Of a stretch of 64,000 bases of DNA, positions 767 through 63,797 are shown one piece after another (positions within the stretch are counted from its first letter, which is position 1; each line of letters begins with the position of its first letter). The translations under genes and the position numbers were made by a program. This stretch comes from Octopus vulgaris. Lineage: Eukaryota. Below the pieces are notes generated by a model that did no database searches, had not been told where the DNA came from, and worked only from the letters and a program-made list of their open reading frames with translations. The stretch is taken from the NCBI GenBank assembly GCA_951406725.2, contig OX597832.1:70680001-70744000 (forward strand), given 5' to 3'.

Positions 767-822
767 CACACATATATATATATATACATACATATATATA
801 TATATAAACATATATATATATA
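440..822. repeat. (TA)n/(CA)n/(TACA)n microsatellite block
   Basis: Simple repeats are directly visible; the overlapping ORFs are low-complexity artefacts. Confidence 0.95.
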
Positions 823-1199
823 TACTCTTTTACTCTTTTACTTGTTTCAGTCATTTGACTGCGGCCATGCTTGAGCACCGCCTTTAGTCGAGCAAATCGA
901 CCCCGGGACTTATTCTTTGTAAGCCGAGTACTTATTCTATCGGTCTCTTTTGCCGAACCGCTAAGTGATGTGGACGTAAACACACCAGCATCGGTTGTCA
1001 AGCAATGCTAGGGGGACAAACACAGACACACAAACACATACACACACATACATATATACGACAGGCTTTTTTCAGTTTCCGTCTACCAAATCCACTCACA
1101 AGGCATTGGTCGGCCCGGGGCTATAGCAGAAGACACTTGCCCAAGATGCCACGCAGTTGGACTGAACCCGGAACCATGTGGTTGGTTAGCAAGCTACTT
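823..1199 (-). mobile_element. tRNA-derived SINE, body and 3' part of the split host copy 1
   Basis: Minus-strand B-box GGTTCAGTCC at 1159-1168 and a (TAAAAGAG)-type tail at about 823-845. The same family occurs uninterrupted from 36629. Confidence 0.85.
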
Positions 1200-3195
1200 T
1201 ATTTCATATGATTTGCCACTAGGGCAGTACAAAGAGTAGCTGCGGGATGGACAAAAACATTAATGAATGATGGTGATGGACGAAGATGGTGATGGGAGAA
1301 GACGAAAGCGCCCGCCGACTTTCGCTTCTCTAAGACATTGTTCTTTTTTTTCAAAGGTTTTACAAAAATTTCAAATTTTACAAATTTTACCAGAGGCAAT
1401 AAACCTCTTTTTCAATATAATACAATGCTCAGTAAGTCTATGTTACCCGGCCGACCAGCGCTCTTGCCTCAACGAGGCAATCATCGCTGGTCAGTTCGTG
1501 GTCTAGAGGTATAATTTGAAATGAGTCCATCGGGAAGGAACCCGTGATCCCGCCCAGATTACCCCTCCCTATGACCTCCGCAGCCAGCTGCGAAGGCCAC
1601 TCGGGGTCCTCCGTGCAGGACCGAAGTCCCTCCCAATGGCCCCGCTTTCTCATTTTACGTATTTCGCCCTCTACTATTCGTCCTTTAAAAAAGAGGACCA
1701 CAAATTGTTCCACAAATTGTTCCTCAGGCGGCTCACCCGCCTGAGAAGACTTGGGAGACGCTGCCTACGTGTTACAATCCGGCAGCGTCCCGTTTCTCTT
1801 TTTTCTTTTCTTCTTTTTACCTTGGGCCACGGGAGGTTGAGGTTCCGGAGTTGCACACACCGGGTTCTCTTCTTCTCCTGCAGCTTCCGGGTCTTTTGGT
1901 AGGTCGCCATTGCTCCCCACTTTTCTCTTTCTCGTTGAGGAAGTCGTCGCTTCCCTGCTCTGTTTCTCTCCCTCCATTGGGGGGCAGGGAGAGGCTCCGA
2001 TATCAACTGCTCCAGGAACCTACTTTGGTCCCTGGGGCAGTTTTTCTTAATATGGCCGGTCTCCAGGCACAGGTGACACTTGGGGAAGGGCGTCCCTCAA
2101 GCATCACCGGATAACTGTACCCGGCCATCATCAAAAAGTCCGGCAAAACCAGACTTTTGGCTGATTGGGTCCATAGGGTCAAAATAGCTTTTGAACCCTC
2201 CCAATCAGCCGCAGGCTGTACTTTCACATTTAGGAGCTGGGCGCTGCTACCACCCAGAACCCGGCGGATAGAGTCCTCTATCCACTCGGGTTCAACGCCG
2301 GGTGGTAAGCCGCAGATCCAAGCTCTCAACAATTTTTGTCCCTTATAATTAGGGAGGAACAGTATTTCCTTGCCCTCAATGGGCTTGCTTGCAAAGTCGC
2401 AAGCTGCTTTAGGGGAGTCAAACATCAACCAAACCGTTGCGTATTTGACTCCCCGTGAGACGTATTTAACGGCTGGCATATAGTCTGCCAGCTCGTTAAC
2501 AATAGTGGCCTTTGGAAAGACAGCTATGGTGTTGAGCGACTTTGAATAAGTCCTCAACACCACGGTCTTGTCCTCTAGCTCCTTCAGGTATCTTTTGGGA
2601 GGTGTTAACTCCCATATGGTAAATTCCTTTGCCATAACAAAAGTTTAAAACAGTTCAAAGTGACAAAATAAAATAGACAAAAAAAGGAGAATAAAAACAG
2701 AACAGAAGGGAAGAAACAAAATTCGAAACGGCAGTTCAAAAAAGTTTTTAAAAATAAAAATAGCAGAAGAGAGTTCAAAATCCAGGCAAAGGAATTAATT
2801 TTTTTTTTCTTTTTTCCCGGCCAAAAAGGTATTCCAGGCCACTGGTAATCCACTTGTGAAAATAATCCTTGGTACTCCGTTGGTAAATCCGAAGACAAAG
2901 GCAATTACACACGTTGGTTTTTGAGGTGGGGCTACGCCTCCTCAAAAAACACAATTCTCACTACAAAGTGAGTCTTTATACTTGACTACAGGCAGGAAAA
3001 ATGTCCGGAGCAGAGTGAAGTCTATTACCTGCTAAAAAATATTAAATGCTAGAAAACATTAAATGCAAGGCAATAAACCTCACTAAGCCCCCAAAAATAC
3101 AAAACGCCTACCTGTAGTCGAGTCAAAAGTTCAACAATTCACGTTGAAACACGTGACAACTGGAGCAGCAAAAAACCACGTCTGAACACGTCAGA
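1200..3195 (-). mobile_element. Non-autonomous ORF1-only Tx1-like retroelement, copy A
   Basis: About 2.0 kb and collinear with 7337-9320. Bounded by ggttagcaagctactt (1184-1199) and ggttagcgagctactt (3196-3211). No EN or RT coding sequence. Confidence 0.85.
1438..2635 (-). pseudogene. ORF1 (gag-like, CCHC zinc knuckle) of copy A, disrupted
   Basis: ORFs 2003..2635, 1765..1977 and 1438..1713 align consecutively to the 396-aa ORF at 7631..8821. There is a frameshift near 2085, a TAG at 1765-1767 and a 12-bp tandem duplication near 1698-1722. Confidence 0.88.
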
Positions 3196-3439
3196 GGTTA
3201 GCGAGCTACTTTATTTCATATAATTTGCCATTTAGGCATTTACAAAGAGGGGACAAACAAGGACAGACAAATATAAAGGGTGAAGTAGCTTAACACAGTT
3301 AAAATTTTCGAATGAAATTACGGGTAAGATTATAAACAATGAGTTTTACGAAGACAATGTTTAAAAATATTATTAATGATCATGTCGAAGGACGGACACC
3401 CAGCCATCCGGGTAGAACCTTTACTTTCTGATCTGGTCA

Positions 3440-4963
3440 CACTTACCTGGTGCCAAACATACCCAACTTGCATGCCACAAACATATCTCGTGACAGACAC
3501 CTCTTCTCCAGCCTGATTTTGCTACTGAGGTGGTAACTAAAAAAGTTAATCAACCGCTGGCCGGAGACAAAGGTGCCTGTCACTATAACTTTCGTACGCG
3601 TCTTCCATACTGTTTCTTTCAGTATGGCTACTACTCAGAAAAAACAAGCCTTTCTTTCCCTGTTAAGGAAAGGAGGCGGCACAATCTCGATGATAGACTC
3701 AGCTGATAGATGTACTCTTCCCATCACTGACAATAGTTGTTCAGCAAAAGCTATCAGTCCCGATAACTCCGGACACTCCACGAATGCGTGCAAGACGGTC
3801 TCCCTATCCTGCTCACATCGCGGGCATGTCGGCGAGACGGCACTACCGTGCCTTGACAGCTTGTCGCGAACAGGTAAAGCCGCACGGAAACACTGCCAGG
3901 CCAGGGATTTCTGGTAATTATCCAGATACCCCGGCCCGAACGTCCTCCGGAACAGGTTGACCAACTGATTTTCATCGTAGCCCAAGGTCTCCCCCAAGGC
4001 GTCTTCGGACTTAACCTCCACTAACCCGCTATAGAAATCCGTGGTGGAACTCCTGTTGCCGGCGTTGCCCACCCGAGAGAGTAGCTGGAGCGCCTAACGG
4101 CACTCCAAATGCCATTCACTCAGTTTAGGTCTCCGCTTGATCCATGCACCGATGTCCGTTAGGGATGTTAACTGGGGAAGGTAGAACCGGACGTGCGGTG
4201 ACCACACCTGCTCTCCATCCAGGTAAAGCCAGAGGTGCCTCAACCTTAACGCGAGTTTTCGCATCCTCAGCCAAGGCATCCCTAGCCCACCCTTTAGCGG
4301 TTTCTGGCAGCAGACAGAGCGCTTTACAAGTGGCTTTCCTCCTTTCCATAAAAATCGGAAAAGGATTCTCTCCAACTTGTTCAGCCACAAATCGGGGCAA
4401 GGCACCACGGTCAGACGGTAGGTGATTACTGATGCTATAAACATCTGCACCACCTCCGCCTTCCCTAGCAGGGATAACGCCCGCCCAGACCAGGTCTGGG
4501 CTAGAGCGGTCACCTTGTTGGCCACCTCACTCCAATTTTTCTCAATCTGGAGGTCTGGCTCGAACCAGACTCCGAGCAGCTTAACAGGACCTTCCGTCCA
4601 ACGCCCTACGATGTTATTGGACGGCATCGGCTTGCCCCTCCAGGTGCCGAGTTGCAAACCGACCGACTTGTCCTTGTTAACCTTTGCTCCTGCCACCGCC
4701 TCGTAGCTTTTGATGGCCTCTTCCACCACTGGAAGCTGGCCTTCGTCTGCCACGATGATGGAGGTGTCATCCGCATACGCCGTAGCTCCTCTTCCACACC
4801 ATAGATCATGCGGCGCGCCCCCTAGTGCCTCCAACTTCCGCAGCAAAGGCTCAAGAGCCAATACGTATAGGAGCGAGGACAGGGGACACCCTTGACGAAC
4901 TGAACGCTCGATCGTGAACGGCTTCGAAAAGAAACCGTTCACCTTGACTAGAACTGTGGACAA
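3440..4963 (-). pseudogene. ORF2 RT C-terminal half plus zinc-binding domain
   Basis: VKVNG...SVRQGCPLS...AYADD...KLLGV...GGLGMP...CPRCEQDRETVLHAFVEC, with in-frame stops at 4094-4096 and 3635-3637. The end coordinate is approximate. Confidence 0.9.
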
Positions 4964-5595
4964 CTAAAACTAGACCTATCTCTAGTTCTTATCACTATCC
5001 TGTCTAGATAAGACTTGAACCTTCCGTCGCCACTCATCCAGGTCCACTCTGGGACGTTCGGATGGTCAAGTCTGTAACGATCTGCCAGCTGAAACCGCTT
5101 AAGCAGATCCACGAGACGTGAGTTCACTTTCCTATAGATCGAGCCAACGCTATCGATGTGTACGTCAACGATAGCATTAAAGTCCCCTAATATCACTAAA
5201 GTCTTCGACGTCACGAGAAAGCCCTCTAGGCGCCGATAAAAATCAGTTTGGAAACAAGGTGCATAGAGTCCGATCAACCTGAAGGACTTACTGCTGTATG
5301 TCACATCAAGGACGACCAGCCCACCTTCTGGGTCTACATAGACTGTACTTGTCTGCAGAGCCAAGTCTTTACGGATCAGTACCACTACACCCCCTCGCCC
5401 TCCGGTCTGGCCAGGAGACATGATTTTCTCGTAGCCATTCAGGAGAGGCGAGAAGGTTTGTAGGCTGTCCAGCTTGGTCTCTGTAGCAACCATCACATGT
5501 ATATCATGTGATCTGATGTCGTCAAGGAAACAAGCCTGCTTCCACTTCGAACTCAGACCACGCACATTTAAACAACCAAGGTTAAGAGAAGCCAT
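4948..5595 (-). pseudogene. ORF2 apurinic-like endonuclease domain, truncated
   Basis: LNVRGL, ETK, GGVVVL, LYAP, LGDFN, LADRYR and SYLDRI motifs are present; the final SDH motif is lost at the deletion. Confidence 0.92.
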
Positions 5596-5612
5596 TACAA
5601 AAAGTAAAAGTT

Positions 5613-6945
5613 CTACTTACATTTCGTTGGAGAGGTTGGGGCCGACCTCACCACACATTGGTGGGCCCCTTCTTTCTCCTCCTTCTTCAGATAGTCCGGC
5701 AAGTTCGCGATATGCCGGATGGCGTTTGGTTGTCTGTCTTTTAATTGTTTGAACGTTGTTTCCGCGATCCACGCACATCTCTCGTTTCGATCTTTGTATT
5801 TGTTGTACAGTCTTGCTGACTGATGCGGAACCACAATATCGTTTATGTATTTGTTTTGTGTGTCGAATTCAATTAATATGAGTTCATTTTTTTGTCTTCT
5901 TTTTCTGGGCCAGTTGAGCGGGATTTTTTTTTTTCGTGTCTGTGGTGTGTCTTTGTTTTTATTATTTTTTGTAGGGGATGTGGACGGGGATGATGCACGA
6001 ATTCTTTTACGAACTGTTGTAAATCCCGCCTCTGATACCTCCATGGTATCGTCTGGGGTAGCAATAGTTTGTTCAGTAGGCGCCGCAGTTTTTAAGGGGT
6101 GGGAGGTTTTAATAATGTAGGGGTTTGTGAGTGCGAGGGCTGGGTTTTTTCTTCAGTTTGTTTTGGGGTTGGCACCGTAACAGCGGGAGTGGGATTTTTT
6201 GTTTTTGTAGGGGTAGGTGAGTTTGCAAGGGTAGGGATTTTTTTATTATCTGAGGGGCCTGGTGTCTGCGGTTTCTTTTGCTTGTCTGGACAGTCTACAC
6301 GAATATGGCCCTTTTTGCCGCAGGCGTAACAGGTGGGTTTTCGGCCTTCGACTTGTACCCTGAGGGCCACGTTCTCGCCCACGAGCACCCTCTCAGGAAG
6401 GAGCTGCAGGTCCTCCGGTGTTCCTTGAATTATTATATTAATGTCTCGCCCAAGCCAATATAGAGGGGCAGAGCATGTTACTTGTAGTATTTTAATTTTG
6501 TCCGTCCTTTTATATAACAGGGCGGCCACTACCTCTACCGGATCTACTTCCGGCGGGGCTTCTGCAATCCTGACCCGGGACGTCCTGCGTCCCCTATAGC
6601 TTGGGAAAAGTACACAATGTCCTTCCAAATCGGGGACAGGCATTTCTCGATGGTGTTTTTTTCAAAGTGTTTGAACCTTCTGCTTTGTGGACAGAAGGTT
6701 TTAAACACTACGGTCCGCTTCTCGGTCTCCACGATACTGGCGGAGGGTGATATTTTAACATCACCACCCTCCTCTTTCATTCTTTTAAATAGCTCGACGA
6801 GCTGATTGACATTGATGTCAATGTTCTCGGTAGCCACTGCGGCTACCGCAGAAAATTTTTTACTACAGTTAATATTGCTCTCCTCAAGAGCACTATTTTC
6901 GTGAATAATCTCAATAGACATTATTCTGTTGAAATTAGACAACAC
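5613..6945 (-). pseudogene. ORF1 of copy B, frameshifted
   Basis: Three overlapping frames (6544..6945, 6092..6643, 5613..6044) with a CYACGKKGHIRVDC knuckle and a Pro/Thr linker. Homologous by eye to ORF1 of copy C (EKRTVVFKTF vs EDKTVVLRTY; EGRKPTC vs EGRPPKC). Confidence 0.85.
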
Positions 6946-7336
6946 AAAAATTACGAATATTGGTTTCCCACAAAACTGGGAAACCTATAGAAAGTTTTTC
7001 TTCCAAAGCAGTTCAATAAGTGGTAAAAAGCAGTTCAAAAAATTTCATTTCCCACCCCCATTCGGGGGAGGGGCACGTAAATAGTCTGGCAAGACTATAT
7101 ATAGTCACGTAGATAAAAAAGCCACAATGGCTAACAGTTCAACAGTAACAAATTATCCAATTATTCCCCGGTAAAACCGGAGAACAAGACAGTTCAACAA
7201 CGTTCAAAAACAAATTTTCAGTAGTAAAATTCAACAATTAACAACACAGCAAAACTCTTACCGGGAAGAAAACGCGTCCAAACCGTAGTAAGGTAAGCAA
7301 AGTCACTCTTCAGTCAGTGAGGTAAGCGAGCTACTT

Positions 7337-9320
7337 TATTTCAACAATTTTGCCACTAGGGCAGCACACAGAGTAGCTACGGGCTGGACAAAGACATTAA
7401 TGGATGATGGTGGTGGTGGATGAAGATGGTGATGGGAGAAGTCAAAAAGCGCCCGCCGACTCTTGCTTCTCTAAAACAATGTTCTTTTTTTTTCCAATAA
7501 TTTTACAAAATTTCCAAAATTTTACAAAAATTCAAAAATTTCAAAACAAATTCCAAATTTTACAATTTACAATTTCAAAAGTTTTTCCAGAGGCAATAAA
7601 CCTCTATCGCAATATAACCCAAATACAGGTTCACGTTACCTGACCGATGAACGCTCTTGCTTTAATGACGCAATCGTTCTTCGTCAGGCCCCCGCATATA
7701 GGTATAACTTGCAAGAGATCCTCCGGGAAATAATTCTCGATCCTGCACATATCATTTTCGAGTAGGACCTCCGCAGCCAGCTGCGAAGGCCACTCGGGAT
7801 ACTCCATGCAGGACCGAAGTCCCTCCCATTGGTTTCTCTTCCTCATCTTACCTATTTCATTCTCTAGTGTACCTCCTTTGTGGAAGAGGACCACATAATA
7901 TTTCTCCGGCCCCACAACCGCCGGAGGACACATGGGAGACGCCGTCTGCGTGTTACAATCCGCTGGCGGCGTCCCGTTTCTTTTCTTTCTTTTTTTCTTT
8001 TTACCCTGGGCCACGGGAGGTTGAGGTACCGGCGTTGCACACGCCGGGTCCACTCTTTCTCCCGTAGCTTCCGGGTCTTTTAGTGGGTCACCATTGTTTC
8101 CCACTTTTCGTTTTCTTGTTGAGGAAGCCACCGCTTCCTCGTTCTGTTTCTCTCCCTCCATTGGTGGGACAGGGAGAGGCTCTGATATTAACTTCTCCAG
8201 GATCCTACTCTGGTCCCTGGGGCAGTTCTTCTTAATGTGGCCGGTCTCCAAACACAGGTGACACTTGGGGGGACGTCCCTCAAGCATCACCGGATACTTG
8301 AACCCGGCCATCCTCAAAAAGTCCGGCAAAACCAGATTCTTGGTTGACTGGGTCCATAGAGTCAAAGTAGCCTTTGACCCCTCCCAATCAGCCGCAGGCT
8401 GCATTCTTACGTTCAGGATCTTGGCGCTACCACCACTCAGACCCCGGCGGATAGAATCTTCCACCCACTCGGGCTCAAAGCCGGGTGGCAGGCCGCAGAC
8501 CCATAATCTTATTAATTTTTCTCCCTTGTAGCTTGGGAGAAACAAAATCTCTTCGCCCTCAATGGGCTTGCTTGCGAAATTGCAAGCTGCTTTAGGGGAG
8601 TCAAAAAGCAACCAAATCGTTGCGTATTTGGCTCCCCGTTGAATGTATTTAACGGCTGGCATATAGTCTGCCAGCTCGTTCATAATAGTGGCTTTCGGAA
8701 AAACCATTATGGTGTTGAGTGACTTTGAATACGTCCTCAACACCACGGTTTTGTCCTCCAGCTCCTTCAGGTAACCCTTCGGAGGTGTTAACTCCCATAT
8801 GGTTAACTCCTTTTTTGCCATAACAAAAGTCCAATAAAAAACACAATGACAGAACAGAAAGACAGAGCAGAGAAAAGGACGAAGGAAGACAGTTCAAATA
8901 ATGGCAACACTGTTCTGCAACTGGTAATCCTCACGAAACAGGGTACTCCAGTTGCAGCACACTTGGTTCTCCGTGGTAAATCCAAGCACAATTGGTTCTC
9001 CGTGTTAAATCCAAGCGAACAAATTAATTTTTGAGGAGGGGCTATGCCTCTCAAAACACACAATTCTCACTAAAAGGTGAGACAATAAATATGCCAACAG
9101 GCAGAACAAATACCTCCGAAGCAAAGTGAAGCCTGTTACGGGCAGAAAAGTGTTAACACTAATTAACATTAATGCCAAAAAGTATTAACGGCAAGCAACA
9201 AACCTCACTATGCTTCCAAAATATCCAAAATGTCCTACCTGTTTGCCGTAAATGTTCAATATTTCACGTTAACACGTGACATCTGAAGCAGCTCCAAAAA
9301 ACACGTCTAACTCAGACGAA
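7337..9320 (-). mobile_element. Non-autonomous ORF1-only Tx1-like retroelement, copy C
   Basis: About 2.0 kb between target copies at 7321-7336 and 9321-9336. It has one intact ORF and the same 3' end as copies A and B. Confidence 0.88.
7631..8821 (-). CDS. ORF1p-like nucleic-acid-binding protein, 396 aa (putative RRM-like region, CCHC knuckle, basic KKKKRKKR tract)
   Basis: Uninterrupted ORF with CHLCLETGHIKKNC; homologous to ORF1 of the adjacent Tx1 element. Confidence 0.85.
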   Translation of the reverse strand: MAKKELTIWELTPPKGYLKELEDKTVVLRTYSKSLNTIMVFPKATIMNELADYMPAVKYIQRGAKYATIWLLFDSPKAACNFASKPIEGEEILFLPSYKGEKLIRLWVCGLPPGFEPEWVEDSIRRGLSGGSAKILNVRMQPAADWEGSKATLTLWTQSTKNLVLPDFLRMAGFKYPVMLEGRPPKCHLCLETGHIKKNCPRDQSRILEKLISEPLPVPPMEGEKQNEEAVASSTRKRKVGNNGDPLKDPEATGERVDPACATPVPQPPVAQGKKKKRKKRNGTPPADCNTQTASPMCPPAVVGPEKYYVVLFHKGGTLENEIGKMRKRNQWEGLRSCMEYPEWPSQLAAEVLLENDMCRIENYFPEDLLQVIPICGGLTKNDCVIKARAFIGQVT

Positions 9321-9360
9321 GGTGAGAAAGCTACTTAGCACACAGCCACTCCTGCGCCTA
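9321..9360 (-). mobile_element. 5' head (A-box) of the split SINE copy 1
   Basis: Minus strand reads TAGGCGCAGGAGTGGCTGTGTGCTAAGTAG, matching the head of the uninterrupted copy at 36629 (TAGGTGCAGGTGTGGCTGTGTGGTAA). It continues the SINE broken at 1199. Confidence 0.85.
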
Positions 9361-9394
9361 CATATATATATTTATATAAATGTATATGTATATA

Positions 9395-9951
9395 TAAGTT
9401 CTTTGTCTGTTTCCTATGCATTCCTATGCATTCTCAAATAGCTCGACCAAGTCAAATCAAATTTTACAAGGTAATAGTATCAGACACTGTGAGTGTCAAC
9501 ATGTATTTTTTTTTCTTTGGGATTAAAATACATCATTGGCACCGATTCGGTATTACGTGTGAAAAGTGAAAGAATAAGATCTATATTGTAATGAGATATA
9601 TATTGCTTCACTTTCAGTCTTTCACTTTAATACGAATGTGATAACACTAACATCATCTTATTTCTATTATATTTGAAATAAATGAATAATTTACATCCTA
9701 ATGTGAACAACATTACGCAACGGTAACATTCCGTCTTTATGGCCATGACAGCGGAATGGTGGTTTGTCAGTGTATGAGTGTTGACTGACATAACGAACGA
9801 CTGGAGGTGAAAGTTATAACAAAAAAAAATGAGGTCGCCGGTTCAAGGTATATAAAAATACACATTTACCGTCCAATTACCAATTATCGCAGTAATTGCA
9901 AGGCATTTACAGTTATATATTTACTCCTAAAATAACATTTAATACATGTGC

Positions 9952-16388: not shown

Positions 16389-17199
16389 TGTGTATGTGTG
16401 TATGTCTGTCTGTCTGTCTGTCTGTCTGTGTGTGTGTGTGTGTGTGTGTGTGCGTGCGTGTGTGTGTGTGCGCGCGCGTGTGTGTGTGTGAATGTACATT
16501 GATGAAGAGACATCATAAACAGCATTTAGGAGCTCCATTAATAACACTTTGACTTCGGTTCACTGTTACGTTTTCGTCGAAGGCAGGCCATGAAGCGAGT
16601 AGAGAGTTACGGGTCGCTGAAAATGTTGCGAACAGCAGCGAGAGGACTTTGACGGACAAACAAACGATTAATCGCTTAAGCAAAACATTAAACAAACAAT
16701 CGACTGGTTGGTTGGTTGGTTGGTTGGTTGGTTGGTTGGTTGGTTGGTTGGTTGGTTGGTTAGATATTTGACCAATTGACTAGCAGTAAAGAAGTGGAAT
16801 TGAACCTGTGAGTGTGTGATTATTATCGGCGTAATGGCCCCTCCTCGGACAACAAAACTGTTTCCACACACGATTTCATATCAACAATCTTGCAACTCAA
16901 ATACAAAAACCAAAATTGATTATAAATATATTTTATTGAAATAGCTGTAGAGCCCATTAAAATTATTAACTTTATATGAAATGTATGCATGCCTGCCTCT
17001 TATTCAATACAATACATACAGGCGTCGCTGTTCCCTGTCTGTTCGAAGGTTTATATATATTCAGTGGAACACATCCACTGGTTTCCAAAAATAGAAATAC
17101 TATTATTTTTAAATCTCTATAAGGAGACTACGACAGCACTACTGGGTATAAATTGTTATCGCCAAGCTAACTTAGAAGGAACGTGTATAGGGTGTGATT

Positions 17200-17885
17200 G
17201 TCGCGTTGACTATGACAGAGAAAGTTGTCATGGCGATACCTGCTCATTGGCCAACGCAAAGTTGCAGAGAGTGTATGGAGAGGAGTGTATGAGCCTCACA
17301 CAAGTGTACGAGTGGTACAGACGTTTCGAAGATGGCCGAAAAAATATCCATATTGACGAATGTTCTCAGAGACACGTAATCAGCAAAAATGAGAAAATCA
17401 TCACAGATGTGCGTGCAACTGTGAGAGGAAATCGTCGAATCACCATCCGCGAGTTATCAAAAGAAGAGCAGATTGGTTACGGTTTAGTTCAGTCCATTAT
17501 CTACCAAGTTTGTACCAAATCTGCTTTCAGCTGACCAAGCAGAGAGTCGGGTTTGAGATGCACAAGATCTGCTTGATGGTATAGAGGACGATGAAAAGTT
17601 TTGAAAACTTTGCATAGACCTCTGAGCAAGAATCACCAAGATTTCAGCAAAATTTGATGCATAATCTCTGCTCAACTCTCTCTGCCATGTTCAATGCGAT
17701 GATGACATGTTACTCACGTTTTCCAAGCAATGATGCAAACAGCAGAAGTTCACGAGGACGTTAGAACAACTTAGTGCACCTGCACTGCAGAGTTCAGGGT
17801 CAATCTCTACAAAGCAACTCCACTCTCCATGCATTAGCTTCGTTACTATAGTAACAGTCTAGATACTTATTGATCAGACCACGTA
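17200..17885 (+). mobile_element. Mariner-type DNA transposon remnant
   Basis: KLQRVYGEECMSLTQVYEWYRRFEDGR...NRRITIRELS is the mariner HTH N-terminus. A TIR-like end tgatcagaccacgTA lies at about 17871-17885. Confidence 0.85.
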
Positions 17886-33917: not shown

Positions 33918-34769
33918 ATAGGAAAAGGAAAGATCCAAGGAAGGGAAGGCGAAGGAAAAAAATCGCCAACGATACACACGCGGTCATATATATATCCCAA
34001 GCTTTATTTAATTTCCTTTGCGGGAAGGACTGTTACAATGAAGTCGCGCCTTGTCCTTGCCTTCCAAGGTGGACAACTGAAGAAGGGGAATATCCTTTAT
34101 GTTGTATGTTTCGTTTCTCAGTTTGTTTTTTTCGTTGTTCGAAACAAAGTTTGTTTCTATGTTTTTGTTTTCATGTTTTCGCTTCTCATTGTGTTCAAGG
34201 TTTCTTTATGTCCTGTACCAATATATGCATGTATATATACATACATCTGTAGGTATGTACATATATGTATGTATATATGCAAATATTTATATATCATTTA
34301 TAGTATTGTATATATATATATATCTCTTATTATAAAAGGCAGATTTTATCTGCCTCCCTTTGTCAGTTATAGAAATCTACAATATAGGATTTCTTCAATT
34401 ACAATTTACCTAGCATTTTTAAGAGTAGAGTGCATCGGGTCATGCCAGGTCCAGTTTTTAAAATTTAAACTCCAATTAAGCAAAATTTACAGAAAACTCA
34501 CATTCTGGTGTGTATGTCAAATGCTTTTCTTAATGTGGTTTACACCACACGCAAACGCACACACACACAAACGGAGCGAACTGTTTCACTGACGCTATCA
34601 CCCTTCTCCTCCTTTGTCTTTGCAAGTTTGCAGCTATTAAAGTGAAAACAGTGAATCCGACAGCGATAAAGAAAACGAATTAGCACCTGAATGGAGTGAA
34701 AATTTAAAAACTGTTTCTTTCGGTGATTTTTCTGAAGAAACTGCACCAAGCCACAGACTTTCCCAGAAG

Positions 34770-35302
34770 AGTAAAGCCTTAGACTATTTATTTTTACTTT
34801 TTCGAATGAGCCTATTTGAAATCATTACGGCAGAAACGAACCGTTACGCTAAACGTAAACAAAACGAAAGAAAGGATAGTTTGTTATTTCCCACAACCTT
34901 AAATGAAATTAAGGCCTATTTTGCCATAAATATTATTATGGGTATCAGAAAGTTACCCAGAATAACAAATTCTATCGTAAAATTTTGTTGTATACCCAAT
35001 TGAATATTAGCTAATAACCCATTTTCTATAGCGATGTTTGAACAAAATTTTAATAATTTTATATATTGTTGAATTTACCTGTATCTACCGGCAATTAGAG
35101 TCACTTTGTGACAAAAATTATAGTATAGAATTGGTTGAGGACATTTCATTAAATTATCTTCCAAAATTCACGTTAATATATTGATAAATAAAAAAGTTAT
35201 TGTTGTTTAATGAAACCAGACTAAATTTATGATTACGTTAGAAATTAATTGAAACACATAAGGGGTGTATTTTGGTCAGAAATATAGTAACGAAAGGGTT
35301 AA
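34770..35302 (+). mobile_element. piggyBac-like remnant
   Basis: LFEIITAETNRYA...PTTLNEIKAYFAINIIMGIRKLP resembles piggyBac transposase; the right end is AGGG|TTAA at 35295-35302. Confidence 0.75.
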
Positions 35303-50031: not shown

Positions 50032-52082
50032 TATTTCATAATATTCGTCATGTAGACAGTACAAAGATTGTGTAGCTTTGCGGGCCGGACAAACACATTA
50101 ATGAATGAAATTGAAATAAAATGAATAAATGAGAGACGAAACCCAACACTCGCTGATTGGATTTTTCTCGAAAACATATTTTCTTTTTTCTTTAAATCAT
50201 AATGAGGTTTCAAACCTCTTACAAGAAGGAGGCACTAAAACCTCTTACTTAACACGTTTGTTTTAATACACACAAATGATGTAATAAACCACTACAAATA
50301 ATACAATAAGATGAGGTTTCAAACCCTCTAACGAGGCCTTTTCGCTTCCTACTCATTGATATATCCATCGATATATTCCTCATTATTTTCAATGCCGCTT
50401 GAGTTCCTGTATCCTTCCATTTCACATGCTTCACTCATGTAGGACATGTAAGTCGTGTAAGGGCCACCCGGCCATATGCGACACTCTTTCCCAAATCCTT
50501 TAAGCCTTTCTCACAAGGGAAACCTTATGACCTCCACAGCTATCTGCGGAGGCCATTCAGGACCTCGTGTGAATGGCATATCTACTATCTCTTTATGTTC
50601 TTCTACTATTTTTCCACCTCCATACCCTTGTAGAAAAAGATAATTAATTCATCATCTTTAAAAGTGGGGGTCGTTTCTTCCACCGCGGTGACACAACTTC
50701 GGGACATGCAGACGGTACATCATCTCCCCGCTGCGATGACCCGTTCTTCTTTCTTTTTTTCTCTTTTCTTCCTGACTTCGGGAGAGTGGAGCTCTTCCGC
50801 TTTGTCCGGAGTCTCTCCCCCACCTCCCGAAGTCTTAGGGTCCTTCGGCAGGCAACTATTGTTACCCGCCTACTTCCTTTTTTCACATCCACCTCTCCCT
50901 TTGACCGGGTAGGGGAGGTGACAGTTCCGGGACCTTACCATGGTCCTGAGAGCAGTTCTTTTTAATGTGGCCTGGCTGAAGGCACGAGTGGCACTTGGGG
51001 GGACGTCCCTCAAGTATCGCCGAATACCTGCAGCCAGCCATTTAAAAAAATCTGGAAAAACCAGATCTGTTGCGGCCGTCGGGGTCTACAGGGTCAAAAT
51101 CGCTTTTGACCCTTCCCAATCGAACGCTGGCAATACCCTTACATTTAAGAGCCTTGACCCGCTATCCCCCAGTCCCCGTCGGATGGTATCTTCAATCCAA
51201 CCCGCGTCGGTGTCTGGGGGTAACCTACATACCCAGGCTCTTATTAATTTTCTCCCGCACTACGACGAGACGAACAGAATTTTGTTGCACGCTAATGGCT
51301 GACTCGCAAATGTTTGAGCCTTTTCCCGGTCGTCAAACAGCAACCATACGGTTTCATGTTTGACACCTCGGGATATGTATTTCACTGAGGACAAATAGTC
51401 TTTCGGTTCATTTTCTATAACTGGTTTTGGGAAGACGGTGATGGAATCAAGAACTTTAGAATAAGTTCTAACCACCATCGTCCTCTTCTCCATATCTGTT
51501 AACCACTGCTTAGATGGGTTAATTTCCCACTCTAAGACAGAGTTCTTCTTTTTAAGTTCCTTCTCTGCCATGTCCCAAAAAACAGTTAAAAAGTAGTTCA
51601 AAAATCAGTCCGCAAAAAAATTAAAACCGAATAAAAATAGAATTAAAACAAAATAAAAGAGAAGGAAAGGAAACTGAAGTTCAAATAATGAAAAGAATGA
51701 ACCAAAATTTAGAAAGAAAGAAAAAATAGAAGGAGAAAATAAAAGAAAAACCTCACAAATAGAACAGACAGGGAATCCTTTGTATAATACTCCAACAGGT
51801 AATCCAGTAGTGTCGGTTATTCTTGAAGTACTCCAGGTAAATTTCGACTTTTTCTAGTGAGATACGCCCACTAGAATTTACAAATTATTTGGCGAAAAAA
51901 AGCCACACCAAAAATTCTCAATTCTCCGTTATGGTGATGAGAACACAATATTTTTGCTCGCTATAGCGAGCCATAATTGACAATTTTTCTTTTTGTTCTT
52001 TTTTCTATTCACGGAGCCAAAACTCACGTCTTCTCACTGTAACAGTCCAGACCAACTAGTGTTGCATTCTGGGTAACCGGAA
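50032..52082 (-). mobile_element. Non-autonomous ORF1-only Tx1-like retroelement, copy D (diverged subfamily)
   Basis: Flanked by a perfect 15-bp duplication gtaagcaagctactt (50017-50031 and 52083-52097). It carries an ORF1 homologue and the shared 3' end. Confidence 0.88.
50440..51571 (-). pseudogene. ORF1 of copy D, disrupted
   Basis: MAEKEL...MVVRTYSKVLDSITVFPK...VKYISRGVK, a stop at 51260, PKCHSCLQPGHIKKNC at about 50953-51000 and PEWPPQIAVEV at about 50530-50562. The end is approximate. Confidence 0.85.
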
Positions 52083-52122
52083 GTAAGCAAGCTACTTAAT
52101 ACACTGCCACTTCTGCACCTAT
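52083..52122 (-). mobile_element. 5' head (A-box) of split SINE copy 2
   Basis: Minus strand reads ATAGGTGCAGAAGTGGCAGTGTATTAAGTAGCTTGCTTAC. Confidence 0.8.
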
Positions 52123-58579: not shown

Positions 58580-61500
58580 TGGCTCGGCTTCGCGAACGAA
58601 GATCAGGAAGTCTGTCCACGTAGCGTGCATGCGCGTTCATGACTGACAAGTCCAATATAGGAAAGGCAGGTCAGTGAGCAGTGTCCACAGACGAAGGTAA
58701 CATCCGGTGTGGTGTCAGAGGCGGCTCGTACCTTCCTCCTGCGTCTCTTGTCTTTAAGCGCGTCTCTTCTTTGTTCCTCAAACTTGCTGACTGCGTTGAA
58801 GATCGTGTGGCACCAGACATCACAGTCTGCAGCCAGGCCTGACCAGCATTGGTGGTTAATATGACATGCAGTTAGAGACTGCTTGAGGCAGTCTTTGTAG
58901 CGCTTCCTCGGTGGCCGGTGGAGAGTTCACGGTTCTCCATTCTGGAGACATGCCCAGCCCATCGGAGGTGTGACTTCAGTAGCATGGCTTCAATGCTGGG
59001 GATCTTGGCCCACCCAAAGAATTCAATGTATGTTGAGGATGGTGCTGACACATCGTTGGTGGAAGCGCTCGAGGAGACGGATGTGACTGCAGTAAGTGAT
59101 CCAGGTCTCTGAGCCATAGAGAAGAGTGCTGAGAACCACGGCCCTGTAGACACTGATCATTGTTTTGTTCTTCAGGCTATTATTGTGCCAAACACGTTTG
59201 TACATTCTGCCAAAGGACCTATTTGCCTTAGAGAGTCTATTTTCAATTTCTTTGTCGATTCTTGCATCGAATGAGATGATGCAGCCCAGGTATGTAAACT
59301 GCTGAGTTGATTTCAGTTCGGTACCGCAGATAGTGATGTGGGGTGGGCGGTAATCCTCTTGGAGTGTAGGTTGGTGAAGTACCTCCGTCTTCTTGAGGCT
59401 GACCTCCAGGCCAAGGAGCCTCGAGGCGTCTGCAAAGCAGGACGTAATGCGCTGCAGAGCTCGCTCTGCGTGGGCGACAAGGATAGCGTCGTCTGCGAAG
59501 AGAAGGTCTCGAATCAGCCTCTCCTGGGTCTTGGTGTGGGCTTGGAGGCGCCGTAGATTGAAGAGGCTGCCATCCAGACGATACCTAGCATACACCCCAT
59601 CCTCATCCTCCATATCTTCAGTTGCATGCTTGATCATCATGCTGAAGAAGATGCTGAAGAGAGTCGGTGCCAGGACACAACCCTGCTTCATGTCGTTGGA
59701 GATGGGGAAGGGCTCCCACAGGTCACCATTGAGTCTGACCTAACCACGCTGATTCTCGTGCAGCAGGATCACCATCTGTAGAAACTTGGTGGGACAGCCA
59801 AGTCGTTCCAGGATGAGCCATAGTCCTGTCCTGCTCACTGTGTCAAATGCTTTTGTGAGGTCGAGAAAAGTAGCATAGAGTCCCCTGTTTTGTTCTCGGC
59901 ACTTCTCCTGGAGTTGGCGCAGGACGAACACCATATTCGTTGTGCCTTTGTTGGCTCTGAATCCACACTGGCTCCCGGGGAGGTTTTCTTCAGCAATGGT
60001 TGGTACTAGCCTGTTGAACAGGATCCTGGCAAGTTCTTTGCCGGCGATGGAGAGTAGGGTGATTCCCCGGTAGTTGGAGCAGTCAGACTTTTCGCCCTTG
60101 TTCTTGTACAGGGTTATGATGACGGCGTCACGAAGATCCCGTGGCAGCTTGCTCTGCTACCAGCAGCAGACAAGAAAATCATGGTGCTTGTCATGGAGCA
60201 TCGGACCTCCATTCTTCCCGATTTCTGGTGGGATGCCGTCAACTCCTGCTGCTTTGCGACTCTTGAATTGTCCCATGGCTTCAATCGTTTCTTTGAGGGT
60301 GGGTGGTTCGTTGAGCTCCTCTTTGAGTGGAAGGTGAGGAATGCGAAGGATGCCAGCGTCCTGTACGGTACGGTTAGCATTGAAGAGGCTTTGGAAGTGC
60401 TCGGACCAGCGAGCGAGAATGGAGGTGTTATCGATGAGAAGGTCCTGTCTATCTGAACTGCGCAGGGGACTCTGGACCAGGTGGGTGGGAGCATACACTG
60501 CTTTCAGAGCCTCATAGAAGCCTCTATAGTCTCCGAGGTCAGCGCACAGCTGGGTTCTCCACGCCAAGTGGTCCCGCCACACGTTCTGTATTTCTCTGAG
60601 TTTTCGCTGTAGAGTGCTGCATGTGCGTCGAAAGGTAGTTTTCTTTACAGGACAGGCTGGTTGTGCGAGGTGGGCCTGATGAGCTGCCCTCTTCCTTGCT
60701 AGTAATTCCTGGATCTCCTTGTCATTTTCATCGAACCAGTCCTTGTTTTTCTTCTTTGTGTTCCCGAGAACTTCCATAGATGTCTTAAGCATGGCTGATT
60801 TCAGGTTCTCCCACAAGGTGTCTGGGGTGGTGTCATCAGTGCAGGGGGATTCGTCTAGTCTTTGCTGCAGGTTTGCTTGGAACTTGATTTTCAGTTCCTC
60901 CCCGAACAAGCTGTCGACATCGAGTTTCTTTGCGGGGTTACCTTTCTTCTTGGGTTTGGGTTTGAACTGCAGTTTGAGCTTGCAGCAAACAAGGATATGG
61001 TCGGTGTGGCACTCGTGTGTAGAACGTCTTTCAGGTCCCGCTGGCGTACAAGCACATAGTCACGTAGATGCCAATGTTTGGACTGGGGATGCACCAAGTT
61101 GTTTTTAGACGGTCTTTCTGTTGGAAGATTGTGTTGGTAATAGCAAGTCGGTGCTCTGTGCAGAACTCGAGCAGGAGGTGCCCGTTGTCATTACAGCCAC
61201 CAATGACGTGTCTTCCAAAGACTCCTTTCCAAGCCTCCGAGTCTCTCCCAACTCTTGCGTTGAAGTTGCCAAGGATCAGGACCTTGTCGTTTGCAGGGGT
61301 GTTATTCAAGCGTCTGCACAGATCAAAATAGCAGCTGCCTTTGTCCACAGGATCTGCCAGTAGAGTTAGAGCATAAACACTGAAGTGCGTGAGATGTTGT
61401 TTGCTCTCCAGTGGTAGGCGCATGGATATGATGCGGTCGAGTGGCCCGTGGCTAACATTTCCAGTTTGAAGGTGATTTTGTAGGACTCACGTTTTTCAGA

Positions 61501-62506
61501 TGATGGTTTTCCGGACCAGAAGAGGGTGTAGCCAGCGTCACGTTCTTTGAGGCCGCTCTCGTCAGCGAAGCAGACCTCGCTGAGAGCTGCTATGTCAATG
61601 TTGAGACGAGAGAGTTCATGAGCTATGAGAGCCGAACGACGTTCCGGGCGGCTGCTGTCAGCCTTGTCAAGCATGGTCCTGATATGCCAGCAGGCAACGT
61701 GAACTTTTCTTCGGTTTTGTTTCCATGTTTGTTCGACCGCGCTGAAGATGCCCGTTGACCGCGGCTAGCCAACTGAGTATAGAGGAGACGAGCTTTGTTT
61801 AGGCGAACCTTTTCTACCGTCCCTCTCCATGTGGAGCAGGCAGTGCTCTCCCTGAATAGGGCTACCTGGTCGCTCAGGATGCTGCCGAGTTGTGTCGTCG
61901 CCTCCGGGTCGACAACCAGGCGACCAAAGTCCTGAGCCGCCTACATGTAGGGTCGAGACTACGGCTTCCAGTGACATCTTCCATCTGCCGCTTTCGCCCC
62001 TTTCCATCGCTGCAGGGCTTTTAGGATGGCTAGTCACAGAACGTGGACATGTCCTTTGGCCTGCGCTGAGGAGTTTTAAGGTGAAGTGCTGTGCGCGCAA
62101 ACTGGCCCCAGCCTTTAAGCACGAGGTCCATCTGCCATGACCTAGCGAGCTGGGACGATGACAGCGAGATCTTCGTGCCGTAGGTTTGAAGTTGGAGTTA
62201 TCCTCTCCTAGTAGGGTTGCCAACCATTGCTGACGAGCCCCTCCTGCCTATGCCATCCAAACCAGGGCGAAAGAGAGACACACACGCACAAAGCACTCCA
62301 CACACACGTTGTTGGATGGCCGTTGACTACGCTGTAGTTCTTCCGCCCTTTGACAGGTCTTATTTTTTGTCCTGCAGGGTGTCCAAAAAACACCCGCCTC
62401 ACCAAGCAAGCCTGGTGCGGTTGCCAGTTTAGTCGCCGACGACCCGATCATGTAACAGGTTGTACTGGACTACATGGTACCAGTAACAGCCAAGTGACCT
62501 GACCTG
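58579..62506 (-). mobile_element. RTE/BovB-clade LINE, near full length, multiply frameshifted, inserted in (TA)n
   Basis: EN (WHIRTM, IDIAALSE, ILGNFNARVG, NDNG) and RT (DLTKAFDTV, KQGCVLAPTLF, LLFADD, FTYLG, LLYGSETW, LRWAGHV), a long 5' UTR and (TA)n on both sides. Confidence 0.95.
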
Positions 62507-62821: not shown

Positions 62822-62852
<31 letters not shown>

Positions 62853-62854
<2 letters not shown>

Positions 62855-63797
62855 TTCAACAATTGAGGGTAAAATTAATTAATTAATCAATTTCACCAAG
62901 TATTCAGTATGCAAAGGGACCATTTAAGGCGAATTCAAATTATTACATTATATAAAAGGGCTTAGTAAAATAAATTACTTTGCCGCATACTGAACTCATT
63001 AGAAATAGCAGCTAAGAAAAACTTTTTTAAAACTATTTCCAATACTTAAAGAAAATCTCTCTCATATAGTGTTTGCTCAACTCAACTCACGAAAGTATGG
63101 GGGTAGAGACATTAAAAAATCAAATGCAAAGGTTATTTGAGAACGTACGTTTCAAGATTAGTCAAACTCGACACTTCTATCATCAGCTCAGAACTCCCTG
63201 GTTTGGATTTGAAAACACTGAAAGTGAGAGCATACCCTTTCGGCTTCCCATCGCTTCTGAAGATCTACTCGAAACTAACAGTGCCAGCAAATTCAAATAT
63301 GCAAGCGAAGAATTTCTGCTCTCCCCTTTCCACCAGCGTGGGTTAAAATCAGTAAACACCATGCTTTTTTTCGGTAAAATCCGAGGCATTAAATAGAGAG
63401 AGATGAATTATAATTTCAACAATTGAGGGTAAAATTAATTAATTAATCAATTTCACCAAGTATTCAGTATGCAAAGGGACCATTTAAGGCGAATTCAAAT
63501 TATTACATTATATAAAAGGGCTTAGTAAAATAAATTACTTTGCCGCATACTGAACTCATTAGAAATAGCAGCTAAGAAAAACTTTTTTAAAACTATTTCC
63601 AATACTTAAAGAAAATCTCTCTCATATAGTGTTTGCTCAACTCAACTCACGAAAGTATGGGGGTAGAGACATTAAAAAATCAAATGCAAAGGTTATTTGA
63701 GAACGTACGTTTCAAGATTAGTCAAACTCGATTTTGACTAATCTTGAAACGTACGTTCTCAAATAACCTTTGCATTTGATTTTTTAATGTCTCTACT
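62853..63797 (-). repeat. Direct repeat (period 560) followed by an inverted partial copy, Penelope-like pLTR arrangement
   Basis: 62853-63171 matches 63413-63731; 63733-63797 is the reverse complement of about 63663-63726. Confidence 0.88.
63138..63190 (-). ncRNA. Type I hammerhead ribozyme
   Basis: TGAG-CTGATGA-tAGA...TCTt-GAAAC-GTAC-GTT-CTCA, with palindromic stem III ACGTACGT. Confidence 0.7.

Follow-up and report, generated by a model that had tools for sequence, protein, structure and literature searches.

In the stretch of Octopus vulgaris DNA analysed here (64,000 nt, hereafter the window), the 2000-nt element designated copy C (7337..9336, minus strand) represents, with a probability that we put at about 0.85, an old, recently copied lineage of LINEs which encode only ORF1, maintain it by purifying selection and likely owe their insertion to the endonuclease (EN) and reverse transcriptase (RT) of the family of the neighbouring copy B. 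This reading best accounts for the absence of ORF2, the tight length distribution, the selection on ORF1, the identical insertion base, the shared 3' hairpin and the existence of 5'-truncated copies.

Six minus-strand target motifs (AAGTAGCT) delimit four elements in the window. Copies C, B (3212..7336, minus strand) and A (1200..3211, minus strand) form a head-to-tail chain within one tRNA-derived SINE. The left, A-box side of the SINE head lies upstream of the chain (9337..9365, minus strand), while the B-box side and the body are found downstream (about 830..1199, minus strand). Copy D (50032..52097, minus strand) is an older broken element that sits in another SINE copy, at the identical base. 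The ~2-kb ORF1-only layout without EN and RT, which the initial annotation had described for A, C and D, is borne out by the target-bounded lengths of 2012, 2000 and 2066 nt, respectively. ORF1 of both A and D is disrupted by frameshifts and stops, and neither has an ORF2 match. The three were earlier taken for one family; they do share an ORF1-only lineage, but are members of three subfamilies and not a single close family, nucleotide identity in the core being 86% for C/A and 65% for C/D. Copy B, previously regarded as the ORF2-type element, does carry pieces of ORF1, EN, RT and zf-RVT, but is itself defective, being an internally deleted member of a 5.45-kb autonomous family. Other repeats in the window include a frameshifted EN-RT LINE (59023-62247, minus strand), RTE-like by translation and unrelated to C, and a 324-nt direct repeat (62848-63171 and 63409-63731, 99.7% identity) with a 69-nt inverted copy at 63728-63796. 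Frames at 16980-17534 and 34641-35003 resemble, by eye, decayed pieces of mariner-type and piggyBac-type transposases.

All features of copy C lie on the minus strand. The element begins with a 16-nt target-like head (9321..9336), a target duplication which is partly element-borne; the initial annotation had left it out by ending the element at 9320 instead of 9336. It is followed by a 5' UTR of ~500 nt (8822..9320), which varies between subfamilies, and by the 396-aa ORF1 (7631..8821). The ORF was correctly reported as intact, as the frame opened by the ATG at 8821 runs to 7631 with no internal stop. The 3' tail contains the motif AGCTACT (7372..7378), complementary to the target site as read from the sequence, and a hairpin with a 4-bp stem and a 5-nt loop (7351..7363), which is common to the autonomous family.

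The ORF1 product is predicted to be an RNA-binding protein. AlphaFold2 modelling on a 22-sequence alignment (mean pLDDT 64) gave two alpha/beta domains, a knuckle, a low-confidence basic linker and a C-terminal domain. The alpha/beta domains (aa ~18-183, 8273..8770) are predicted RRMs: Foldseek returned 85 matches at E<=0.001, those listed being tandem-RRM proteins, and VIA aligned ORF1 with 5d78_A at Z 8.7 (rmsd 2.1, 75 aligned). The sole Pfam find in C was the zinc knuckle PF00098 (E 0.011, below the curated cut-off), and the corresponding CCHC motif is seen in the alignment at aa 186-201 (8219..8266). The C-terminal alpha/beta domain of ~90 aa (7634..7909, pLDDT 77.7) is conserved between subfamilies. 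Searched alone, it gave nothing at E<=0.001 in Foldseek and at best Z 5.3 in VIA, and a profile comparison with the C-termini of autonomous ORF1s yielded a probability of 0.5%.

The 2.8-Gb host genome was searched with C and with D. As the best 40-150 candidates were scored in these searches, the sample is biased towards full-length copies. At the DNA level, C found five further near full-length copies on five contigs (95-98% identity), as well as many more at ~85-90% identity with different 5' UTRs. The protein search gave at least 150 matches, of which its 30 loci and 60 regions spanning 63-86% identity were taken; together with the DNA-search loci these make up 113 distinct copies. Both junctions were found in 87 copies, 85 of which measure 1.9-2.55 kb (median 2,077), a narrow length distribution. 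ORF2 was found inside none of the 113 C-type copies and none of the 30 D-type loci, the latter taken from at least 150 matches to the N-terminus of D; tail and target were present in 25 of these 30. Two apparent exceptions, an ORF2 fragment at locus L149 and an ORF2 match at L228, were rejected as parts of ORF1-only elements, both lying outside them; the former (L149_3275, one of the five copies mentioned below in which no tail was found) is found 1.2 kb downstream, after a separate autonomous-type ORF1.

All subfamilies, from 46% to 100% amino acid identity to C, have the same short layout, with the tail directly after ORF1. The youngest one comprises 21 copies with a mean distance of 0.023 and a minimum of 0. 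Judging by dispersed copies, fixed ends and 5' truncations, ORF1-only elements have multiplied as a unit of their own. The copies are interstitial and lie in the SINE. The element is not a SINE itself, as it has a 396-aa ORF under selection. Rfam gave one chance-level match and nothing of weight over positions 800-9500. Named protein relatives come from Octopus; one of them, at 67% identity, has a gene annotation in Octopus sinensis. Large parts of C are matched, piece by piece and at 88-99% identity, by contigs from four runs assumed to be RNA, which speaks neither for nor against expression.

Several copies depart from the common plan in detail. The 5' UTRs of L015-L020, L106, L108, L114 and L117 are 200-400 nt longer, and in L015, L018 and L020 the first ~200 nt of the 5' UTR are repeated, resembling promoter monomers. 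A degenerate second tail is located ~250 nt ahead of the true 3' end in L120, L125, L126, L128 and L136, while the mosaic copy L121 combines a core 98% like that of L016 with a C-terminal domain of the L133 type; such tails and mosaic C-terminal domains point to recombination between subfamilies.

Selection on ORF1 was assessed in two ways. An ATG frame of at least 375 aa is kept in 37 of the 113 copies. Among these, dN/dS of the core (aa 4-203) is 0.30, 0.23, 0.23, 0.22 and 0.20 by rising dS bin and stays at ~0.2 out to dS >1, far from the neutral value near 1, although pairwise values share branches and CpG is uncorrected. The linker gives 0.33-0.44 and the C-terminal part 0.57-0.63, the alignment being poorer there. 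The synonymous character of A/C differences pointed out in the initial annotation agrees with this: in the core, 34 synonymous and 31 non-synonymous codon differences are seen despite 130 S versus 455 N sites. Within seven clusters of at least four copies (73 of 108 copies), shared variants number 44 N to 80 S (omega 0.16) with no stops, whereas private variants comprise 168 N, of which 6 are stops, and 114 S (omega 0.43; Fisher p 9e-6 for shared versus private). Low omega of shared variants together with private stops is expected if copying requires ORF1 and single insertions decay afterwards. Private omega is itself less than 1, probably because source lineages were sparsely sampled.

The insertion site was claimed to be specific, and it is: of the 109 copies whose downstream sequence was long enough, 103 end at the SINE site. 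This count is made up of 98 copies with tail and target and five in which the tail is doubled and the real end coincides with the target; the latter belong to six copies with no target after the first tail. In five further copies no tail was found, and four are cut by the end of the locus. Several tRNA SINEs are known in octopus: OK, OR1 and OR2. The empty site resembles the head of a tRNA, in which elements insert at a base lying after the A-box region and before the B-box region, and ARAGORN calls the SINE head tRNA-like only with a relaxed threshold. The empty 33-mer occurs exactly at least 54,138 times, and its AAGAAG variant 3,155 times. Exact filled 3' junctions number at least 467 (AAGTAG) and at least 124 (AAGAAG), the two patterns being of different length. 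Among the first 87 junctions listed, 51 belong to ORF1-only elements of the C lineage with protein evidence and 19 to ORF2-bearing ones, so that the 3:1 excess noticed earlier within the window extends outside it; the exact-junction search is biased towards young copies and towards the final element of a chain. The rest are 12 short elements with a like tail (two on matches <=30 nt), three short ones with the partner's tail and two of another ORF1-only type.

Passenger and partner have the last ~40 nt with the hairpin in common, and the remaining 3' UTR is dissimilar. With a fixed 3'-arm pattern, a 4-bp stem was found near the end of 196 of 228 tails: TGCC/GGCA in 149, TGTC/GACA in 24, GGCC/GGCC in 10, GGCT/AGCC in 6, CGCC/GGCG in 4, and three single others. 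Thus, five compensatory stem types are each represented by at least four copies. The 5'-truncated copies have an exact 3' end and, at the 5' side, a duplication of 0 to ~17 nt or small deletions, as given by target-primed reverse transcription. We suggest that the EN and RT of the 5.45-kb family would insert C-type RNA at the common SINE base, and this family is the likely enzyme donor for the ORF1-only elements. From the sequence data we infer that ORF2p would be borrowed in trans, with ORF1p acting in cis.

Complete copies begin with the 16-nt target-like head. The same head variants recur at unlinked loci, suggesting that the head is partly element-borne; at L093, L156 and L168 a locus-specific variant of the duplicated motif flanks both sides, so the head is also partly a true target duplication. 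Since every inserted element is flanked by the target motif at either end, later elements can stack into chains such as C-B-A. An AATAAA read from the sequence spans the 3' junction and presumably serves as a poly(A) signal. At L175, a 106-nt insert at the site consists of a 5' head apparently joined directly to the final ~45 nt of a tail; mobilisation may require no more than the tail.

Copy B is 92-97% identical to the 5.45-kb family and lacks ~100 nt of ORF1 and ~1.2 kb of ORF2; its gaps were found in none of the 20 fetched regions of this family. ORF2 is intact in eight of these 20 loci and both ORFs in three, and the copies are mostly 97-99% alike: the family is young. All 20 regions have the 3' junction at the same SINE base, whereas PMC4494074 speaks of target-sequence preference when more than 20% of flanks fall in one repeat. 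The partner has two ORFs, an APE endonuclease, an RT and a C-terminal zinc motif, with PF03372, PF00078 and PF13966 detected in ORF2. The best solved match of ORF2 is human L1 ORF2p (E 8e-67 versus 6e-20 for R2), which assigns it by similarity to the L1 group, while its placement in the Tx1 clade is suggested by architecture and targeting; the searches returned no named Tx1 reference.

ORF1 of the partner family is only 25-27% identical to the ORF1-only cores. C matches ORF1 of B at 28% over 121 aa and an intact B-family ORF1 at 26%, and no DNA alignment of C and B was obtained under the settings used; the great distance between the two ORF1 types noted earlier therefore holds. Using a divergent ORF2 piece as a query for a closer parent, we took 20 regions of at least 150 matches. 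ORF1s of other autonomous families proved 20-37% identical, the best being L295 (37%), and the ORF2-bearing element with a near-identical ORF1 whose existence would have suggested a recent deletion origin was not encountered among the loci examined. In an unrooted tree of 43 cores, in which 21 rows are broken copies read with X, a branch with 100/100 support and a length of 1.55 changes per site separates the 25 ORF1-only rows from 13 autonomous ORF1s. There are several SINE-targeted autonomous subfamilies with ORF2 55-99% alike, and the donor for each ORF1-only subfamily is therefore not fixed. Autonomous families were sampled by two ORF2-side searches and one junction sample, and with such sampling a rare or extinct autonomous element with this ORF1 may exist.

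A second ORF1-only lineage (L311-L340; G000:C2:138.77-138.79 Mb and C17:67.74-67.76 Mb) is separate from the C lineage in the tree. Its elements are ~1.7 kb long with an ORF of up to 472 aa and are very young (150 of 150 scored matches are 96-100% alike). They form long head-to-tail arrays with another autonomous family (ORF2 ~1131 aa, ~60% like that of B) and have the 3' tail in common with it. At G000:C4:80.13-80.145 Mb (L124, L328) a C-lineage chain adjoins an array of this lineage. ORF1 of the 1487-nt L277 groups with the second lineage (98/87), yet L277 is located in the SINE site; tails of the L277 type (L348, L370, L371, L375, L378) have the SINE-family hairpin and lack the antisense motif. 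A tail swap between partners is a possible origin of such elements, as judged from these tails.

Several other explanations were considered. The short elements could be recurrent internal deletions of a rare, extinct or unsampled autonomous parent with this ORF1, the selection signal coming from the parent. Internal deletions do occur, B being one, and sampling of autonomous elements is incomplete (the 20 of at least 150 matches). However, the short layout is uniform in all subfamilies, no parent appeared among the matches followed up, with autonomous ORF1s reaching just the 37% of L295, and as the youngest subfamily includes copies identical over the core, any parent would be young and easily found. 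We consider this origin very improbable. Passive spread within a composite SINE or by segmental duplication, with the common site going back to one ancient insertion, would explain why every copy resides in the same SINE family, and unequal recombination could lengthen the chains. It is nevertheless hard to believe, since the same end base is shared by different subfamilies, autonomous elements, truncated copies of 100-1500 nt and mixed chains, and the duplicated motif often has a locus-specific variant on both sides, as in the three loci named above.

Another explanation concerns the function of ORF1, on which selection could act chiefly because its product helps the autonomous LINE in trans or competes with it, as has been proposed for HeT-A Gag, or because it benefits the host, rather than for packaging of its own RNA. 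Such proteins likely multimerise with those of autonomous elements (PMC5786205, in its available part), and the gene annotation of the O. sinensis relative might be taken to agree with a host role. Against this, selection is seen on variants shared by lineages, while single copies gain stops and frameshifts and just a third or so (37 of 113) keep the long ORF; a purely trans-acting ORF1 would presumably be unprotected in the copy encoding it. We therefore regard a mainly trans-acting or host role as improbable and retain the interpretation of C as an ORF1-only LINE whose own copying would depend on ORF1.

The complementarity between the tail motif and the target deserves separate treatment. 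In the loci sampled first, AGCTTC was present at 12 of 14 AAGAAG junctions and AGCTAC at 142 of 198 AAGTAG junctions, one tail having both. Forty AAGAAG junctions taken in list order comprise 12 with TTC, three with TAC and 25 with neither exact hexamer (four rows match an autonomous-type ORF1); among 87 AAGTAG junctions, 53 have TAC and none TTC. An ORF2-bearing copy shows the switch, as do several ORF1-only sublineages. The Fisher p of 6e-11 for the switch is overstated, since copies share ancestry and those at AAGAAG sites have diverged further; other hexamers split the two samples equally strongly, lineage age being a confounder. The motif was rejected as a requirement for targeting, the exact hexamer being absent from 21 of the 40 tails at AAGAAG sites and from 34 of the 87 at AAGTAG sites. 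Some hexamer-less tails carry near-variants, and one ORF1-only tail type is wholly motif-free and still reaches the base, so it is probably the endonuclease that sets the site. The motif position differs between autonomous and ORF1-only tails. When tail and target were folded together as a single strand, pairing of the motif with the read-through target was predicted in the MFE and centroid structures of B and in the centroid of D, and such pairing is not found in C or A (z-scores -0.2 to -1.9). We treat as speculative, and rather unlikely, the idea that the element RNA helps to read the target via this motif, its pairing partner being either the top DNA strand once displaced or target RNA made by read-through, and that ORF1-only passengers with an anciently diverged capsid-like ORF1p of their own long tracked the changing SINE, several independent ORF1-only lineages swapping tails to change partner and target. 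If true, parasites would be nested at three levels here, and site choice would in part be encoded in RNA. In SART1Bm and R1Bm, a short target-matching RNA was proposed to guide the start of reverse transcription (PMC7265360); according to the available text, that RNA has the sequence of the top strand and base-pairs with the bottom strand after cleavage, whereas the octopus tail motif has the opposite sense.

ORF1-present non-autonomous LINEs are represented by HeT-A, HAL1 and Ag-Sponge, which belong to the Jockey, L1 and CR1 clades, respectively (PMC5786205). The octopus elements have the hallmarks of this class: ORF1p without ORF2, multiplication of their own and a 3' end shared with an autonomous LINE. 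Copy C is thus of the functional class of HeT-A and HAL1, yet it is in neither family. HAL1, the mammalian half-L1 of several origins, is likewise a non-autonomous L1-group LINE encoding only ORF1p (PMC5753468, PMC5786205), and the analogy drawn in the initial annotation stands in this sense. Membership in the HAL1 family does not, as the host of C-type elements is a mollusc, their ORF1 has its homologue in the octopus partner LINEs and does not derive from mammalian L1, their ORF1p is predicted to contain two RRMs and a CCHC knuckle, they use one fixed insertion base, the 3' junction is without poly(A), and ORF1 is ~26% identical to that of the likely partner. HeT-A, with its excess of gag-only copies (PMC6581046), resembles the C-type element in being Gag/ORF1-only and site-restricted, in outnumbering the RT-encoding partner and in forming head-to-tail chains with it (PMC5786205, PMC6581046), but HeT-A is Jockey-derived, telomeric and has a host role, whereas the C-type element targets a dispersed SINE. 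Ag-Sponge of Anopheles is likewise an ORF1-present bipartite non-autonomous LINE, but comes from the CR1 clade (PMC5786205).

Among Tx1 LINEs, the known pairs of element and target include Tx1L in Tx1D, Tx1-Mar together with SINEU-3 in Mariner-N4_AMi, and Keno in U2 (PMC4494074). As in octopus, an EN-RT LINE targets a transposon, a non-autonomous passenger uses the same site, and tandem insertions occur around a duplicated target. However, a tRNA-SINE head is absent from the Tx1 targets listed in the available part of PMC4494074, which comprise DNA transposons, LTR elements, small RNA genes and microsatellites, and the SINEU passenger is short, snRNA-derived and does not encode ORF1. ORF1-only LINEs and target-specific Tx1 elements are already known. 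Their combination within a SINE is not described in the literature consulted, including PMC13282606, PMC9115989, PMC12988792 and PMC4758252, while Repbase, Dfam or the supplements of PMC13282606, with an octopus repeat library, may have it.

Overall, the C-type element is a selfish-DNA finding. Besides the three origins of ORF1-coding non-autonomous LINEs described in the available part of PMC5786205, it represents a fourth, and one that is site-specific within a dispersed repeat. The partner is a candidate for a compact, precise, site-specific integrase with cargo carried via a short tail. In practical terms, ORFs of this kind are annotated as host genes in octopus genomes. As young, intact copies are numerous for the passenger as well as for the partner and the empty target is abundant, the questions of why a LINE parasite retains ORF1p and whether this protein works in cis become testable.
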